32,000 nucleotides of DNA, taken from NCBI RefSeq assembly GCF_000284115.1, contig NC_017080.1, positions 2,190,001-2,222,000 on the forward strand, given 5' to 3'. Made by a program: the position numbers and the translations under genes. This DNA comes from Phycisphaera mikurensis NBRC 102666 (GTDB lineage: Bacteria; Planctomycetota; Phycisphaerae; Phycisphaerales; Phycisphaeraceae). The notes below the pieces were generated by a model. It was not told the DNA's origin. It ran no database searches and worked only from the letters and a program-made list of their open reading frames with translations. This document shows positions 1,517-30,996 of the stretch, piece after piece. The stretch's first letter is position 1. Each line of letters starts with the position of its first letter.

Positions 1517-2661
1517 TGGCGCCTCCCCCCGCACCCGCCGCCGCCCCTTGCCCCGCCACCGAGCGGGGGAAGCGAGCCGATCCGGAGGACCGGTCGCTGC
1601 TGGCCGCGATCGACGGCCGCGCGGCCGCCGCCGACCGCGGCGAGGCCGATCTTTCCCGCGAGGTCGCCGCGCTGCGGCGGGCCGGCTGGCTCGCCGCCCC
1701 GCTGCCCGCCGCGGACGGTGGCCTGGGGTGGGGCACCGAGCCCGCCGGCACCCCGGGCTGCTTCACCGCGTTGCGGCAGCTCGGCCGCGTCTCCCTGCCG
1801 GTCGCCCGGATCTTCGAGGGCCACGTCAACGCGGTCGCTCTGGTCGCGCTCTACGGAGCCGACACGCTCCGCGGCAACGCCTTCGACGCGATCCGCGGCG
1901 GCGGCTGCTTCGGCGTCTGGGGGGCGGACGCCCCGGGCGACGCCGTCACGCTGCGGGGCGAGGGAGAAGCCCTCCGGCTCGCGGGAGCGAAGGACTACGC
2001 GTCCGGCCTCGGCCTGCTGTCTCACGCCGTGGTGTCCGCCCGCGTGGAAGCGGGGACGCAGCTGCTGCTCGTGCCCGTCGGCGACGCCGCCCGCGGCCGC
2101 GGCGACACCTGGCGCCTCGCCGGGATGCGGGCCACACGCTCGGGCCGGTACCGCTTCGACGGCGTCGATCCCGGCGCCGACGCCGAGCTGGGCGGCCCCG
2201 ACGACTGGTTCCGCGAGCCGCACTTCGAGGGCGGCGTGTGGCGCTACTGCGCCGCCCACCTGGGCGCCGCGGAGCGGCTGTTCGCCGAGATGCGGGACGC
2301 CCTGGCGGCCCGCGACCGGGCCGGCGACCCGCACCAGCAGGTCCGCCTCGTGCGGGCCGCGGTCGCCGTCGAGTCCGCCCGGCTCTGGATCGAGCGCGCG
2401 GCCCGCCGCGTGCAGGCCGCCGACGCCCATGCCGACGCCGCCGCGGTGTCGCTGCTCGCCCGGGAGGTCACGCAGGACGCCTGCCGCGACGTCGTCCGGA
2501 TCGTCGAGGAGGCGCTGGGGCTCGCCGCGCACGCCTGGGGCCCGATCGAGCGGACGCGGCGCGACCTCGCCGCCTTCGTCTGCCAGGCCGCGCCCGACGA
2601 CAAGCGTGCCCGCGCCGCCGAGGCCCTCGTCGCCCGCGGGGTGCTGCCGGAGCACCTCTAG
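1516..2661 (+). CDS. Acyl-CoA dehydrogenase-like flavoprotein (381 aa)
   Basis: ATG 1516 overlaps the upstream TGA; an in-frame TTG at 1513 is also possible. The size and segments RIFEGHVNAVALV, GMRATRSG, WRYCAAHLGAAERL and RRDLAAFVCQ resemble the three-domain ACAD fold. High GC3. Confidence 0.65.
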   Translation: MAPPPAPAAAPCPATERGKRADPEDRSLLAAIDGRAAAADRGEADLSREVAALRRAGWLAAPLPAADGGLGWGTEPAGTPGCFTALRQLGRVSLPVARIFEGHVNAVALVALYGADTLRGNAFDAIRGGGCFGVWGADAPGDAVTLRGEGEALRLAGAKDYASGLGLLSHAVVSARVEAGTQLLLVPVGDAARGRGDTWRLAGMRATRSGRYRFDGVDPGADAELGGPDDWFREPHFEGGVWRYCAAHLGAAERLFAEMRDALAARDRAGDPHQQVRLVRAAVAVESARLWIERAARRVQAADAHADAAAVSLLAREVTQDACRDVVRIVEEALGLAAHAWGPIERTRRDLAAFVCQAAPDDKRARAAEALVARGVLPEHL

Positions 2662-3977
2662 TGGTGCCCGACCGGCCCGAGGGCGTGGTGCTGGACCGTG
2701 CGGCGGACGCCCCGTGGGTCGGCCTCGACGAGCTGTGCCCGACTCCGGGCCTCGTCGTCCTCGTCCCGCACCCCGACGACGAAAGCCTCGGCTGCGGGCT
2801 GGCGCTCGCCGCGGCCGCGGCCGCCGGGCGGCGGATCACGCTCGTCCTGCTGACCGACGGCGAGGGCTCGCACCCCGGCTCGGCCACGCACCCGCCGGAG
2901 GTGCTGGCCCGGCTCCGGCGGGCGGAGTTGGACGAGGCCATCGACGCGCTCTGCCCGGACGAAGCTCCGCGGGTGGTCCGCCTCGGCCTGCCCGACGGCC
3001 GCTGCACCGCCGACGACGCCCTCGCCCACCTCGACGCCGCCCGGGCGTTGCTCGACGACGCCGCGCCCGCCACCGTCTGGACCACCTGGAGCGGGGACCC
3101 GCACTGCGACCACGAAGCCGCCGCCGCCCTCGCCGAAGCCCTCGCCGCGGATCCCGCGGTGGCCGTCTGGAGCTACGCCGTGTGGGGCCGCTTCGGCCCC
3201 GCCCGCGCCTCCACCCCCGGCCTCCGCCGCTTCGCGTGCGACGAGATGCGGCCGCGGAAGCGTGCCGCCGCCGGTGCCCACCGCTCGCAGCTCACCCCGC
3301 TGATCGCGGACGCCCCCGACGCCTTCCTCATGCCCGAGGCGTTGACCGAGCACTTCCTCGCGGCGCCCGAGCTGTTCCTCCCCGGCACCGGCCGGCCCGC
3401 CGACCGCCGCGCCACCTTCGACGCGTTGCACGCCGGCGACGCCGACCACTGGTCCGTCACCACCAGCGGGTACGAGCGCCAGAAGCGGGCCGTCACGCTG
3501 GCCGCTCTCCCGCGGCCCGGCTACGCCCGCGCCCTGGAGGCCGGCTGCGGCATCGGGGTCCTCACCGCCGAGCTGGCCCCCCGCTGCGGCGAACTGCTCG
3601 CCCTGGACGTCTCGCCGAACGCCGTGGAACGGGCGAGGGTTCGGCTTGCGCGTCACGGGCACGTCCGCGTCGGGGTGGCCGAGCTGCCCGCAGGATGGCC
3701 CGCCGGGACGTTCGACCTGATCGTCCTCTCCGAGCTGCTCTACTTCTTGAGCGCCGACGAGGTCGCGGACCTCTCCGTCCGCGCCGCCGCCGCCCTGGCA
3801 CCCGACGGCGTCTGCTTGCTGGTGAACTGGACCGGCCCCAACGACCTCCCCCTCGATGGCGACGCCGCGGCCGGAGCCTTCCGCGACGCGGCCGGCACGC
3901 GGTGGCACGTCCTGCGGGCCGACCGCCACGAGGGCTTCCGCCTCGACCTGCTGCGGGCGGCAACCCGCGGCGGCTGA
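2661..3977 (+). CDS. Fusion protein: N-terminal PIG-L/LmbE-family N-acetylglucosaminyl deacetylase plus C-terminal NodS-like SAM-dependent methyltransferase (438 aa)
   Basis: GTG 2661 overlaps the upstream TAG (TAGTG). The N-terminal half has the LmbE signatures VLVPHPDDESLG and GDPHCDHEAA. The C-terminal half (from about nt 3400) has SAM motif I LEAGCGIGVLT. It also has a NodS-like context: YERQKRAVTL..., LALDVSPNAVERAR, FDLIVLSELLYFL. One uninterrupted frame joins the two halves. Confidence 0.8.
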   Translation: MVPDRPEGVVLDRAADAPWVGLDELCPTPGLVVLVPHPDDESLGCGLALAAAAAAGRRITLVLLTDGEGSHPGSATHPPEVLARLRRAELDEAIDALCPDEAPRVVRLGLPDGRCTADDALAHLDAARALLDDAAPATVWTTWSGDPHCDHEAAAALAEALAADPAVAVWSYAVWGRFGPARASTPGLRRFACDEMRPRKRAAAGAHRSQLTPLIADAPDAFLMPEALTEHFLAAPELFLPGTGRPADRRATFDALHAGDADHWSVTTSGYERQKRAVTLAALPRPGYARALEAGCGIGVLTAELAPRCGELLALDVSPNAVERARVRLARHGHVRVGVAELPAGWPAGTFDLIVLSELLYFLSADEVADLSVRAAAALAPDGVCLLVNWTGPNDLPLDGDAAAGAFRDAAGTRWHVLRADRHEGFRLDLLRAATRGG

Positions 3978-4034: not shown

Positions 4035-4080
4035 CCGCGGACCGCGGCGTTTCGGCGCGTCCGCGGCCGGCGGTCCGCGG
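4035..4080. repeat. REP-like 46-bp palindromic element, locus A (CCGCGGACCGCGG-N20-CGGCGGTCCGCGG; right arm 12/13)
   Basis: Read directly. The left arm 4035-4047 is embedded in a 17-bp perfect palindrome, CGCCGCGGACCGCGGCG (4033-4049). The spacer is cgtttcggcgcgtccgcggc. The element ends 35 bp upstream of the korA ATG. Confidence 0.85.
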
Positions 4081-9845: not shown

Positions 9846-9891
9846 CCGCGGACCTTCGATCGTTTCCGGCGTTTTCGGCCGCGGTCCGCGG
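9846..9891. repeat. REP-like 46-bp palindromic element, locus B (left arm degenerate: CCGCGGACCTTCG-N20-CCGCGGTCCGCGG)
   Basis: Read directly. The right arm at 9879-9891 is perfect; the left arm matches 10/13. It is intergenic, 22 bp upstream of the ATG (9824) of the minus-strand gene. Confidence 0.75.
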
Positions 9892-13586: not shown

Positions 13587-14447
13587 TCAATCCGCCGCGT
13601 CGGGCGGGCTCAGCGGCTGGAGGCGGAGGCGGAACCGGGCTTCCTCGGCGTTGTAGCCGCCGACACGAACCCAAGCGGTCTCGCCCGCGGGGATCTCCAG
13701 GACCATCGCCTCCCGGCCCGGTTCGCCGCCGAAGTCCGCGTCGCTCCAGGCGTCGCTGTAGCCGCCGAGCGAGGGCAGCGCGAGGGCGTCGCCGGCGGAG
13801 CCGGCCGAGGCGGCCGCGCCCGCGAGGTCCAGGTCCGCGTCCGAAGCGCTGAGCACCGCGTAGAGCCCCGGCGCCGCCTCCAAGCGGAACACGGCGAGGC
13901 CCTCCGGCGGCAGGGTTCCCGCCGCGTCGTTCCCGACCCGCAGCGTGCCCGGCTCGGCGAGGGCACGCATTAGGGCGATGTCCTCCGCGAAGAACGTGTC
14001 CGAGGGCTGCGGTTCGCCGGGGACGAAGGCCGCGGCGAGGTGCAAAGCGGCTCCGCCCGCGTCCGCGTCGTGCGCCTGCACGAGCACCTGGTACGCACCC
14101 GCGGCCACGATCGGCACCCCGACGCGCTCCGTCCAGGCGCCCTCGAGGTCCTGATCGGAGAAGCCGGCCGCGGCTTCGAGGCCCTCGGGGCCGAGCACCC
14201 CGATCACGAGGTCGGCGGCGCCGCCGACCGCCACCTTCAGCTCGCCCGGGCCGGGGGCTTCGAAGCGGTAGCGGGCGGGCCCGGCCTCGGGCAGACGCGC
14301 GTTGACGGATCCGCCGAGCGGGAGCGGCATCGGGCCCGCAACGCCGGCCGGCTCCGCGGGGGTCGGAGCTCCGGAGGCGGGCGCTGCGAGGGCGCCGGGA
14401 GCGGCGGCGAGGAGCAGGACCAGCGGCGTGAGGCGGGCGATGGGCAT
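13587..14447 (-). CDS. Secreted hypothetical protein with two internally repeated beta-sandwich (pre-peptidase C-terminal-like) modules (286 aa)
   Basis: ATG 14447 gives the signal peptide MPIARLTPLVLLLAAAPGALA/AP. The two halves share the pattern ...YRFEAPGPGELKVAV..ADLVIGVLGPEG...GAYQVLVQAH and ...FRLEAAPGLYAVLSASDADLDLAGA...ETAWVRVGGYN..ARFRLRL. The track ORF extension to 15062 is antisense to miaA and is rejected. Confidence 0.5.
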   Translation of the reverse strand: MPIARLTPLVLLLAAAPGALAAPASGAPTPAEPAGVAGPMPLPLGGSVNARLPEAGPARYRFEAPGPGELKVAVGGAADLVIGVLGPEGLEAAAGFSDQDLEGAWTERVGVPIVAAGAYQVLVQAHDADAGGAALHLAAAFVPGEPQPSDTFFAEDIALMRALAEPGTLRVGNDAAGTLPPEGLAVFRLEAAPGLYAVLSASDADLDLAGAAASAGSAGDALALPSLGGYSDAWSDADFGGEPGREAMVLEIPAGETAWVRVGGYNAEEARFRLRLQPLSPPDAAD

Positions 14448-14495
14448 GGGGGCAGTAAAGCAGCACAAGTCATCGGCGCCGTAGCTTCGGCGTTG

Positions 14496-15416
14496 ATGCC
14501 CCCCGTCCGACCCATCGTGCTGCTCGGGCCGACCGCGGGCGGGAAGTCTGCGCTGGCGGTGGAGCTTGCGGAGCGGCTCGGGGGCGAGGTGGTCTCGGCC
14601 GACGCCTTCCAGGTCTACCGCCACCTCGACGCCGGCACCGCGAAGCCGACGGCCAAGGAGCGGGCGCGGGTGCCCCATCACCTCGTGGACGTCGTCGAGC
14701 CGACGCAGCGCTTCACCGTCCGCGACTGGCTGAACCGGGCGGACGCGGAGGTCCAGCGGCTGGTCCCGGCCGGCCGGGTGCCAATCGTCGTCGGCGGGAC
14801 GAACCTCTACGTGCGGGCCCTGCTCGAGGGCCTGATGGAGGGGCCTGACGCCGATCCCGCCTTCCGCGCCTCGCTCGCCGCCGTCCCCGACGCCGAGCTG
14901 CACGCGCGGCTCCGGGAGGTCGACCCCGCCGCCGCGGACCGCATCGCCCCGGCCGACCGGCAGCGGACGGTCCGCGGCCTCGAGGTCTTCCACCTCACCG
15001 GCCGCCCGCTCAGCGGGCACCAGCGGGAGTGGTCCGCCGCGGTGGAGCCGCCCTACCGACACGATCCGGTCCTGCTGGCGCTGCGGTGGGAGGTGCCGGC
15101 CATCAACCGCCGGATCAACGCCCGGGTGAAGGCGATGTTCGAGCGCGGGCTGGTCGAGGAGACGCGGCGGCTGGAGGCCGCGGGCCTGCTGGGGCCGCAG
15201 GCCCGCGAGGCGATCGGCACCAAGCAGGTGCTCGCGGAGCTGGCGAAGCCGAAGCCCGACCTCGACGCCGCGCAGGAGCAGGTGAAGATCAAGACCCGCC
15301 GCTTCGCCAAGCAGCAGCGGACGTGGCTGCGCCGCTTCGCGGGCGTGCGGTGGCTCGCGGGCGATCAGGAGCCGGAGGCTCTGCTGGCGGGAGCGCTGGC
15401 CGCCGCCTCGGGCTGA
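14496..15416 (+). CDS. miaA: tRNA dimethylallyltransferase (306 aa)
   Basis: ATG 14496. P-loop GPTAGGKSALAVELA, then SADAFQVYRHLDAGTAKPT, HHLVDV, VGGTNLYVRALLEG and RRFAKQQRTWLR. Confidence 0.95.
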   Translation: MPPVRPIVLLGPTAGGKSALAVELAERLGGEVVSADAFQVYRHLDAGTAKPTAKERARVPHHLVDVVEPTQRFTVRDWLNRADAEVQRLVPAGRVPIVVGGTNLYVRALLEGLMEGPDADPAFRASLAAVPDAELHARLREVDPAAADRIAPADRQRTVRGLEVFHLTGRPLSGHQREWSAAVEPPYRHDPVLLALRWEVPAINRRINARVKAMFERGLVEETRRLEAAGLLGPQAREAIGTKQVLAELAKPKPDLDAAQEQVKIKTRRFAKQQRTWLRRFAGVRWLAGDQEPEALLAGALAAASG

Positions 15417-24594: not shown

Positions 24595-24640
24595 CCGCGG
24601 ACCGCGGCCGCTTCGGGCTCCAACGCCCCGCGGTCCGCGG
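24595..24640. repeat. REP-like 46-bp palindromic element, locus C (perfect: CCGCGGACCGCGG-N20-CCGCGGTCCGCGG)
   Basis: Read directly. The arms at 24595-24607 and 24628-24640 are exact reverse complements; the spacer is ccgcttcgggctccaacgcc. The element ends 18 bp upstream of the peptidase ATG (24658). Confidence 0.9.
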
Positions 24641-28842: not shown

Positions 28843-30918
28843 ATGCCCCTCCGCCTCTCCCTGCCCGCCGCCACCGCGGCCGCGGCGCTGTGCTCGCTCG
28901 TCCTTCTGCCCGGCTGCCAGCGGGAGCGGCTGGAGGCGACGGCGGCCGCCCCGCCGGCACCGGTCTTCCAGGGCCCGCGTGAGCTGCGCGGCACGATCGG
29001 CTCGTACGCCCGGCTGCAGGGCGGGGCGCCGCTGCTGGTCTCGGGCTACGGGCTGGTCGTCAACCTCGACCGCACCGGCTCGGGCGTGGTGCCGGAGTTC
29101 CTGCGCGACTGGCTGAGCAACGAGATGAGGAAGCGTGGCGTGGGCAGCCGGCAGCTCGCGGCCCGCAACCCCGAGCTCGCGGCGGTGACGCCGCAGCGGC
29201 TGATGTACTCCGAGCAAACCGCGGTGGTGCGGATCTCGGGCTTCATCCCCGCCGGCGCCACCCCGGGGACGCCTTTCGACCTGCTGCTGGAGGCGCTCCC
29301 GGAGGACACCGACACCACCAGCCTCGCCGGCGGCCAGCTCTGGCGCACGGGGCTGGGGGTGGACGGGGCGAACCGCCGGCTCCGCTTCTCGACGCCGCTC
29401 GCCGCCGGCGCCGGCCCCGTGTACCTCGGGCCCGAGGCCGCGGCGACGCCCGACGCGAGCGGTGGCCGCCGCGCGGTGATCGTCGGCGGCGGCCGGGCGA
29501 CCGAGCCGCGGCGGCTGGAGCTGATCCTCAACCAGAGCTCGTGGGTGAACGCCCGCCGCATCGCCGACACGATCAACGAGCGCTACCGCGCCGGCGCCTC
29601 CAGCCGCCCGGGCTCGGTGCGGCCCACGGCCAACGCGGTGTCCGACTCGGTGATCCAGATCTCGGTGCCGGAGCGCTTCGTCGGCAACGCGGAGGCGCTG
29701 CTCGCGCTCATCGAGAACACCTACCCGTATCCGGTGGATCGGGCGGACAAGGTCGACGAGATGATGGCGCTGCTCGCGCAGCCGGCGCCCCCGGAGGACG
29801 TGCTGCGCCGGGCGCCGCTGGTGTGCCGCGCCCTCGGCCCCAACGCCATCCCCGCGCTGCGGGCGCACTACGCCGCCGGCCCGCTCCGCGTTCGGCAGGC
29901 GGCGCTGGACAGCGGTGCCTGGCTGGGCGACCACGAGGCGGTCGGCCCGCTGGCGTCGCTCGCGGCCTCGGGCGACCCCGCCACGCGGCGGGCCGCGGCC
30001 GCGTCGCTCGCCCTCCTGCCCGACGATCTCCGCGCGACCGAGGCGCTGGCCGGGCTGCTCGACGACGCCGACGACGGCGTCCGCATCGCCGCTTACGAGG
30101 CGGTCGCCGGCGGCAGCGCGCTGGTCGAGCGGACCGCCGTGGAGAATCTCGACGGCGTGAAGTTCCTCATCGACCGGGTACCGGCGGAGCGGCCGCTGGT
30201 GCTGGCGATCCCGCGGGGCGTCCCGCGGCTGGTGATCTTCGGGCCGCAGACCGGCTTCACGCCTCCGGTGTTCGACGCGGACCCCGCCGGGGCCCTGCTC
30301 ATCCGGACGCCGACCTCTTTCGCGCAGGCGATGTCGGGGCTGCGCGACGGCGACACCGCCTTCCTGCCCGCCGTGGGCCGGACGCAGGTGCGCGACGGCG
30401 CGGAGGGCCCCGTGGCCGAGGCGCTCGACGCGGAAGGCGCCATCCTCAGCGTCGAGCTGGGCGGGGCCGCCGAGGCGTTCGCGTCTGCGCTCCCGCTGGG
30501 CGGGAGCGCGGGCGGCGTGCCGGCGACGCTGCGCTGCCGGGTGGAGGATGCGGGGCGCGGCACCGTGTCGCTGCTGGGCCTCGAGCCGGGGCTGGGCAGC
30601 ATGCCGCTGTCGATCTTCTACCGCGGCCCCGGGGGCGAGGGCGCGACCACCGAGCGGGTCGCGCCGACGGTCGCGGCGTTGGCCTTCTTCCTCGCCCACC
30701 GGCCCACGATGGGCACGCCGCAGGAGGGGCTGGACCTCTCCTACGGCCGCACCGTCTCGGTGCTCGAGCGCCTCGCGCGCGGCGGTTCGATGCCCAGCCC
30801 CATGAGGCTCCTCGACAACCCGCTCGCGGCCCGGGTGGCCGAGGCCGAGGCGGCCGAAGAGGCGAGCCGGGCCGGTCGCCAGCTCAGCGGCGCGACGCTG
30901 CCCGCTGATGGTTCCTAG
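28843..30918 (+). CDS. Probable lipoprotein with an N-terminal flagellar P-ring (FlgI)-like domain, central HEAT/ARM-like repeats and an unrecognised C-terminal region (691 aa)
   Basis: The signal peptide with a lipobox-like LVLLPGC is at residues 19-25. The FlgI-like block (about nt 28978-29725) reads GYGLVVNLDRTGSG, QTAVVRISGFIPAGATPGTPFDLLLEAL...SLAGGQLWRTGL, LELILNQSSWVNARRIADTINERY and VIQISVP...ALLALIEN, colinear with E. coli FlgI. HEAT-like repeats (about nt 29839-30105) read AIPALRAHY...VRQAALDSGAWLGDHEAVGPLASLAASGDPATRRAAAASLALL...DGVRIAAYEAV. Confidence 0.7.
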   Translation: MPLRLSLPAATAAAALCSLVLLPGCQRERLEATAAAPPAPVFQGPRELRGTIGSYARLQGGAPLLVSGYGLVVNLDRTGSGVVPEFLRDWLSNEMRKRGVGSRQLAARNPELAAVTPQRLMYSEQTAVVRISGFIPAGATPGTPFDLLLEALPEDTDTTSLAGGQLWRTGLGVDGANRRLRFSTPLAAGAGPVYLGPEAAATPDASGGRRAVIVGGGRATEPRRLELILNQSSWVNARRIADTINERYRAGASSRPGSVRPTANAVSDSVIQISVPERFVGNAEALLALIENTYPYPVDRADKVDEMMALLAQPAPPEDVLRRAPLVCRALGPNAIPALRAHYAAGPLRVRQAALDSGAWLGDHEAVGPLASLAASGDPATRRAAAASLALLPDDLRATEALAGLLDDADDGVRIAAYEAVAGGSALVERTAVENLDGVKFLIDRVPAERPLVLAIPRGVPRLVIFGPQTGFTPPVFDADPAGALLIRTPTSFAQAMSGLRDGDTAFLPAVGRTQVRDGAEGPVAEALDAEGAILSVELGGAAEAFASALPLGGSAGGVPATLRCRVEDAGRGTVSLLGLEPGLGSMPLSIFYRGPGGEGATTERVAPTVAALAFFLAHRPTMGTPQEGLDLSYGRTVSVLERLARGGSMPSPMRLLDNPLAARVAEAEAAEEASRAGRQLSGATLPADGS

Positions 30919-30950: not shown

Positions 30951-30996
30951 CCGCGGACCGCGGGCCCGCGGACGCCAGAACGCCCGCGGTCCGCGG
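30951..30996. repeat. REP-like 46-bp palindromic element, locus D (perfect arms CCGCGGACCGCGG / CCGCGGTCCGCGG, with an extra CCGCGGAC half-site in the spacer)
   Basis: Read directly; arms at 30951-30963 and 30984-30996. It lies between the convergent stops at 30918 (+) and 31056 (-). Confidence 0.9.

Follow-up and report, generated by a model that had tools for sequence, protein, structure and literature searches.

What does a 46-bp inverted repeat do just upstream of the start codon of an M3 peptidase gene in Phycisphaera mikurensis, and why does the same architecture recur several times within 32 kb? A first-pass annotation of this DNA described four such elements, each consisting of two 13-bp arms around a 20-nt spacer, and took them for a lineage-specific family of REP-like palindromes confined to intergenic DNA. 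We analyzed the same 32,000-nt stretch (the window; chromosome C1:2190001-2222000) together with the rest of the genome, which is 3.88 Mb long with 73% GC and comprises chromosome C1 (3,803,225 bp) and plasmid C2 (81,157 bp). All four elements are where the annotation placed them and have the arm matches that it gave. A fifth perfect copy lies inside miaA, and genome-wide about 18% of copies are genic, so the statement that all copies are intergenic fails both for the window and for the whole set. The five copies, in window positions, are:

4035-4080, copy 1: perfect 10-N26-10 core; intergenic
9846-9891, copy 2: one core mismatch (G10 to T); between two minus-strand YceI-domain genes
14932-14977, copy 3: perfect core, 0 mismatches; inside miaA (14040-15416, plus strand)
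24595-24640, copy 4: perfect 13-N20-13; intergenic
30951-30996, copy 5: perfect; between the convergent stops at 30918 (plus strand) and 31056 (minus strand)

The neighbors of copy 1 were typed by Pfam. A PIG-L/methyltransferase fusion gene (2661-3977) stops 57 nt before it, and a korA-like POR gene (to 6046) follows downstream. The fusion gene, on the plus strand, encodes a 438-aa protein that joins a PIG-L-type de-N-acetylase to a class I SAM methyltransferase domain. For copy 2, the distances are 18 nt to the upstream gene's stop (9910) and 21 nt to the downstream gene's start (9824). Copy 4 follows the stop of a UDP-GlcNAc 2-epimerase gene by 160 nt and precedes the start of the peptidase gene (24658) by 17 nt. 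Copy 5 shares 23 of its 26 interior bases with an in-gene copy at C1:609741 and belongs to a small subfamily with common interiors, in-gene copies included. The plus-strand gene that ends beside it (28843-30918) encodes a 691-aa protein with an unusual combination of a flagellar P-ring (FlgI) domain and HEAT repeats.

The Conserved Unit

Arms of 13 bp separated by 20 nt are found genome-wide at 39, 330 and 647 sites when at most 0, 2 and 4 mismatches are allowed, against about 0, 0-1 and 10 sites for each other spacer between 0 and 60. The fixed 20-nt spacing therefore does recur well above chance, as the annotation had proposed. However, 13-N20-13 is not the unit that is conserved. In a position table built from 650 copies, the conserved unit is CCGCGGACCG-N26-CGGTCCGCGG, i.e., 10 + 26 + 10 bp; positions 11-13 and 34-36 are weakly kept, and no interior position exceeds 0.3 bits. 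With this 10-bp core at N26, there are 477, 165, 81 and 55 sites with 0, 1, 2 and 3 mismatches, whereas control spacers average 0.1, 0.4, 3.6 and 32. The total comes to about 740 copies genome-wide, two thirds of them perfect, and the signal holds about 40 bits of information.

The 10-mer occurs 724 times in all, and 573 of these occurrences form position 1 of a paired element. Orphan 10-mer arms number 151, where about 80 are expected. Since single arms are enriched just twofold or so, the arm pair is the unit. Lone 13-mers with up to 2 mismatches are at chance level (28 matches against 17.9 expected), which fits the earlier view that matches to a 9-mer core inside genes were chance occurrences, except that one of those matches is the perfect copy in miaA. 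The spacers were also described as unconserved, and interiors are indeed mostly unrelated between copies apart from A/T patches. The TTCGG string that had been picked out as shared by several spacers is no conserved word; it arises because A/T is preferred, with dyad symmetry, at positions 17-20 and 27-30.

Spacing and Symmetry of the Duplex

Among spacers of 0-99, only N26 (477 perfect), N27 (9) and N47/48 (6 + 1 perfect) rise above background. The N47/48 class has 6, 7 and 14 sites at 0, 1 and 2 mismatches, compared with a background of about 0, 0.3 and 2.5. The sole alternative to the usual distance is thus one that is 21 bp longer, or two helical turns. N47 copies lie mostly in or beside coding sequence, and since 21 is divisible by 3, codon phase may contribute to this class. 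It is not a sufficient cause, because every other 26 + 3k spacer in the 0-99 range stays at background.

Peaks of A/T content fall at intervals of roughly one helical turn (positions 7, 18-19, 28-29 and 40), and coding copies show them as well. The pattern of T on the left and A on the right remains mirror-symmetric after copies are oriented by transcription, and both flanks independently prefer CG or AT just outside the arms. There was no covariation between interior positions i and 47-i, which rules out stem extension or pairing within the interior.

Occurrence and Conservation

The exact pattern has 480 perfect copies in the P. mikurensis genome, with 0 for the reversed-pattern control, and no copies in 40 relatives, a set drawn from 24 other genera of the family and from the same order. 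Relatives with complete genomes are far removed, the nearest sharing at most about 70% amino-acid identity. A search of 185,579 other species, one genome each, returned 26 single matches, all in unrelated high-GC genomes; this is chance. We also looked de novo for iterated dyads of any sequence in 400 kb from each of two sister genera and found none, while the same search recovers 52 copies in 400 kb of P. mikurensis. About 30 contigs of the marine metagenome ENA ORXU01 do carry the motif, and many of these are 75-90% identical to P. mikurensis. The signal is found only in P. mikurensis and this one close relative. We found no publication on the motif in the literature.

Six non-redundant, gap-free orthologous sites could be compared between ORXU01 and P. 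mikurensis by counting differences in the alignments. The arms differ at 4 of 120 positions (~3%) and the interiors at 41 of 156 (~26%), so the arms and their distance have been held through speciation while the interior drifts. Within P. mikurensis, ten paralogous 336-bp repeats have invariant motif arms, while the remainder of the repeat differs by about 10-20% and the interiors vary.

Repeats of about 336 bp fill two regions of the chromosome that have no predicted genes, C1:1344500-1351500 (~7 kb) and C1:2348049-2351995 (~4 kb). Each repeat holds one 46-bp motif and a 10-bp inverted repeat of its own (GTTAGGCGGC...GCCGCCTAAC). Rfam has no family for these arrays or for a metagenomic homolog, and contigs from other metagenomes hold a copy of the 336-bp repeat that is about 88% identical.

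Distribution along the Chromosome

The signal occurs about once per 5-6 kb, or about once per five genes, and its spacing is more even than expected. The coefficient of variation is 0.705; random positions give 0.996, and a gene-aware null that respects intergenic gaps gives 0.95 ± 0.037 (z = -6.6). In 50-kb bins, the variance/mean ratio is 0.51. Both very short and very long distances are scarce (67 below 1.5 kb vs. 146 expected, and 5 above 20 kb vs. 21 expected). The largest copy-free gap is 29 kb long and has 68.5% GC. Depletion in low-GC islands was rejected as an account of the distribution (rho = 0.06 between local GC and copy density). Plasmid C2 carries 3 copies, where about 14 would be expected in 81 kb at the chromosomal rate of one per 5.9 kb. 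The core density on C2 is about one fifth of the chromosomal value, and one of its copies has a duplicated right arm that makes it a 61-bp composite (e.g., C2:23959-24019).

Density in intergenic DNA is highest between convergent genes (~1.0 per kb), followed by tandem (~0.85) and divergent (~0.55) pairs. Copies within tandem pairs lie closer to the upstream stop (158) more often than to the downstream start (73). The start-codon proximity seen in the window, from which the annotation had argued for a leader or operator function, is therefore not the rule, and that argument does not carry over to the genome.

Copies Inside Genes

Crude gene calls placed 269 copies inside genes, which was an over-call. 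We substituted a codon-signature test on the 180-nt flanks, in which one continuous frame must run on both sides; gene positions here rest on crude gene calling combined with this test. By this measure, 120 of 650 copies (~18%) lie in a continuous coding frame, compared with 52% of random positions. A single codon phase, xCC GCG GAC CGx ... xCG GTC CGC GGx, is shared by 87 of the 120 and encodes A-D-R ... V-R-G. Codon periodicity runs unbroken through the interiors of the in-gene copies.

Alignment of 15 in-gene sites with their orthologs gave the following outcomes:

No indel: 8 sites (e.g., FAD/FeS oxidase, miaA)
Difference of 1 aa: 2 sites (C1:1759620, C1:2573883)
4-11 extra residues: 4 sites (e.g., thyA; mutY, +11 aa)
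Variable loop, ambiguous: 1 site (murA)

An insertion of 15-16 codons, as expected of a 46/48-bp mobile unit, was seen at none of the 15 sites. Coding copies are mostly free of indels and so arose in place. Copy 3 of the window illustrates this. It lies in the favored codon phase and encodes AADRIAPADRQRTVRG. Gap-free alignments pair this peptide with AAARIHPNDPQRLSRA in E. coli MiaA (2zm5) and also with 2qgn, so the copy overlays the conserved RIHPND-QR-RALEV segment with no insertion. Residues 191-432 of the miaA product match positions 1-242 of the 243-position Pfam IPPT profile. In the ORF as called, some 150-190 residues precede this domain, and PDB homologs align from about residue 154. 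These extra residues are either an N-terminal extension or the result of a start called too far upstream.

Other genes give comparable pictures. In the FAD/FeS oxidase, the aligned counterpart of AADRAENFARDMAVRG is AGERAKRFAEDMATKG. The left arm in thyA coincides exactly with an insertion of 12 nt that is absent from 13 of 13 relatives, and the conserved IDQI motif falls in the interior of the signal. The murA copy has its right arm over an ancestral TVRV. On these alignments, new sites appear to arise mainly in place, through substitutions and small indels and even in conserved genes. The sites are maintained one by one, either by selection or by recognition-linked drive.

Some interiors are nevertheless more alike than expected. 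Pairs of copies with unrelated flanks whose interiors match at 21 or more of 26 positions number 25, against 2.2 expected under a column-preserving null, and at 20 or more of 26 there are 78 against 18. The copies at C1:230661 and 798502 are identical at 45 of 46 positions, and their identity stops exactly at the arm ends. Shared interiors at unrelated loci imply that whole units are occasionally duplicated or that interiors are converted between sites. The comparison indicates that such copying or conversion of whole units happens occasionally and probably concerns a minority of copies.

A Proposed Signal Read as Double-Stranded DNA

Our leading explanation, which we hold tentatively, is that each copy is a site of a genome-wide dyad-symmetric signal that would be read as double-stranded DNA by a putative symmetric protein of the dimer-of-dimers type. 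Both the reader protein and its function are inferred. The putative protein would contact the bases of both outer half-sites (CCGCGGACCG and its complement), would weakly favor CG or AT immediately beyond them, and could make shape or bending contacts with the two inner A/T patches. The four contact points (positions 7, 18-19, 28-29 and 40) would then lie about one turn apart on one face of the helix, and the rarer six-turn version (N47) would add exactly two turns.

For such a site, the most likely role would be in chromosome organization or topology, as a loop, boundary or topoisomerase-type docking site. Three features lead us to prefer this role: a rigid geometry with quantized steps, even spacing (~5.5 kb) and a tendency to lie at the 3' ends of genes. 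Uptake sequences share the even spacing and the 3'-end bias, along with a frame preference, in-place origin and phased A/T tracts, so the preference is not a result. The proposed role would functionally resemble the host-function side of REP/BIME elements, which are thought to serve also as protein docking sites for gyrase and IHF. We regard that side of REP, together with uptake sequences and HIP1, as the closest analogs of the signal.

The Uptake-Sequence Alternative

A DNA uptake or self-recognition signal is a strong rival, although on balance we consider it unlikely. Here, a competence receptor would prefer the dyad DNA, and biased uptake followed by recombination (molecular drive) would maintain the sites. 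On our comparison, this model shares almost every computable property with the signal. The known examples are the USS of Pasteurellaceae, a 9-bp core with two helically phased T tracts, and the DUS of Neisseriaceae. These words are over-evenly spaced, under-represented in coding DNA and held in a preferred reading frame; they often form dyad pairs at gene ends, are scarce in non-core DNA and have a core flanked by helically phased T/A tracts (PMC2817400, PMC3458573). The P. mikurensis signal matches them in its spacing, coding depletion, frame preference and dyads at gene ends, and in its A/T patches at one-turn intervals. It likewise has hundreds of exact copies in a narrow lineage, is scarce on accessory DNA (the 3 copies in 81 kb of plasmid) and is built in place over genes, as in thyA, miaA and the oxidase gene.

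The genome also encodes ComEC, DprA, ComEA-like HHH_3 proteins and three secretins. Each of these competence families, however, also has matches in 6 to 11 of the 14 control genomes, and being near-universal they carry little weight. Known uptake words are short, asymmetric and active singly, whereas single arms are barely enriched here and the over-represented unit is an obligatory inverted pair with a fixed gap of 26 bp (rarely 47). The density differs as well, with about one copy per 5.5 kb rather than about one per kb. The enforced 36-bp distance from center to center, with its +21 alternative, fits a stable multi-subunit complex better than a pilus-tip receptor. We know of no report of natural transformation in Planctomycetota.

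Hairpins, Transposition and Methylation

Three further readings are each contradicted by specific tests. It is improbable that the element acts as an RNA hairpin, whether as a terminator without a U-tract, a 3'-end stabilizer or a leader structure. A strong hairpin can form at each copy, as had been claimed. The window copies fold at -22.7 to -36.5 kcal/mol (z = -2.0 to -5.4), closed by the 10-bp stem of the arms, with copy 1 at -32.1 kcal/mol and copy 4 at -32.2 kcal/mol (z = -3.7). The alternative fold into two small hairpins fares worse, since it needs positions 11-13, which are poorly conserved. A preference for positions just after stops, with 88 of 231 tandem-region copies no more than 20 nt from one, would also suit an RNA function.

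The arms themselves do not vary as a stem should. If the half-sites varied independently, 10.3 double arm variants that restore pairing would be expected, and 10 are found; among the 165 single arm variants, 74 are transversions that disrupt a pair. The half-sites thus behave independently, and their variants give no evidence that pairing is selected. Transitions that preserve pairing are slightly over-represented in the sense strand (42 vs. 25, p = 0.05), which is the only hint of a minor RNA-level effect. The loop is 20-26 nt long and the U-tract of an intrinsic (Rho-independent) terminator is lacking: T is not enriched downstream of the arm in the genome-wide position table, copy 4 has no terminator-like T run, and a terminator scan called none of the window copies. 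For an RNA hairpin, there would be no need to keep a single arm sequence at ~740 loci or to fix the loop at 26 nt with +21 as the sole alternative. Termination would be harmful at the in-gene copies, and the pattern is mirror-symmetric whatever the direction of transcription.

Very improbable, in our estimate, is a REP/REPIN-type non-autonomous element spread by a RAYT (Y1/HUH) transposase, with the arms as its ends and the interiors decayed. The REP-like label survives in part. The copies are lineage-specific, high-copy, mostly intergenic palindromes with signs of some unit copying, and they resemble REP/BIME and REPIN-RAYT systems as short GC-rich inverted-repeat units that are species-specific, number hundreds per genome, lie mostly after genes and can form hairpins. 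The mobility implied by that label is the part that is not supported. Two further points would favor it: the over-similar interiors at unrelated loci, including the 45/46 pair bounded by the arms, and the presence of two Y1_Tnp genes in the genome (C1:3005658-3006344 and C1:3573575-3574336), which are single-copy paralogs with 58% identity. These paralogs are IS200-like and RAYT-like and are without terminal repeats of the motif.

Mobilization by RAYT had been suggested along with a search of the genome for such a gene. No motif copy adjoins either Y1_Tnp gene, the nearest being inside a neighboring ORF, and homologs with 48-57% identity occur in 18 of the 40 relatives, all with zero motif copies; the suggestion finds no support on either count. 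Both genes, which are conserved at this identity in many Phycisphaerales genomes, look domesticated rather than part of an active IS. No target-site duplication of 1-8 bp was found, and a weak 2-bp excess (103 vs. 82) arises because each flank alone prefers CG or AT. Among orphan arms, pairs separated by 300-6000 bp are no more frequent than chance and lack extended inverted repeats, so there is no parent IS with such ends. Neutral decay should erode all parts of a unit equally, yet between species the interiors have diverged far more than the arms. The in-gene copies overlay ancestral residues, with no unit-length insertion.

REPINs are reported to lie at random in extragenic space and almost never in genes (PMC3116915). 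In contrast, the signal is over-evenly placed, with a quantized arm distance, and 18% of its copies are in genes and formed by substitution; miaA, thyA, murA and mutY are among the genes that hold a copy. Most of its interiors are unrelated between copies, and it has no associated RAYT.

Least probable of all is a HIP1-like methylation or short-patch-repair word, in which a methyltransferase target such as CCGCGG would be kept over-abundant: CCGCGG (the SacII hexamer) does occur 15,949 times on C1 against an order-2 expectation of ~8,600 (1.85x), and the genome has three N4/N6-type methyltransferase genes, yet no C5 methyltransferase (PF00145) and no Vsr endonuclease are found in this 99.97%-complete genome, which counts against HIP1/Vsr-type drive, and a methylase site would leave the extra ACCG, the partner arm and the fixed 26/47-bp spacing unexplained. 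This lack of avoidance of CCGCGG speaks against an active restriction enzyme that cuts the hexamer in unmodified DNA. HIP1 itself (GCGATCGC, cyanobacteria) is likewise an iterated palindromic word that is selected in coding and non-coding DNA, is found in genes and has a non-random chromosomal distribution (PMC5861425; PMC4390886). The two differ in form, HIP1 being one 8-bp palindrome and the signal a 46-bp bipartite dyad. HIP1 also overlaps the targets of orphan methylases and is found roughly once per gene.

Significance

If the copies are indeed sites for a symmetric reader of duplex DNA, a more specific proposal can be made, which we put forward as possible but doubtful. The sites may be anchors of an undescribed chromosome-organization system, in which an oligomer measuring two-turn steps would occupy ~740 evenly spaced positions, making four contacts in the 46-bp form and six in the 67-bp form. 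The need for an anchor every ~5 kb would then have rewritten residues of thyA, miaA, murA and mutY.

To our knowledge, very few systems of genome-wide iterated words that extend over genes have been described (USS/DUS, HIP1 and Chi/KOPS), and each has revealed a DNA-reading machine; we know of nothing comparable in Planctomycetota. The signal described here is unusual in its information content of ~40 bits, in its obligatory dyad with a quantized spacer and in its occurrence in this phylum. A 46-bp duplex would be a sharp bait for the reader protein, with built-in controls: N31 and N36 as negatives and N47 as a positive. More generally, "REP-like" palindromes in newly sequenced phyla cannot safely be assumed to be mobile. 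For P. mikurensis itself, the signal explains the recurrent ADR...VRG peptides and the small lineage-specific insertions in its conserved proteins.
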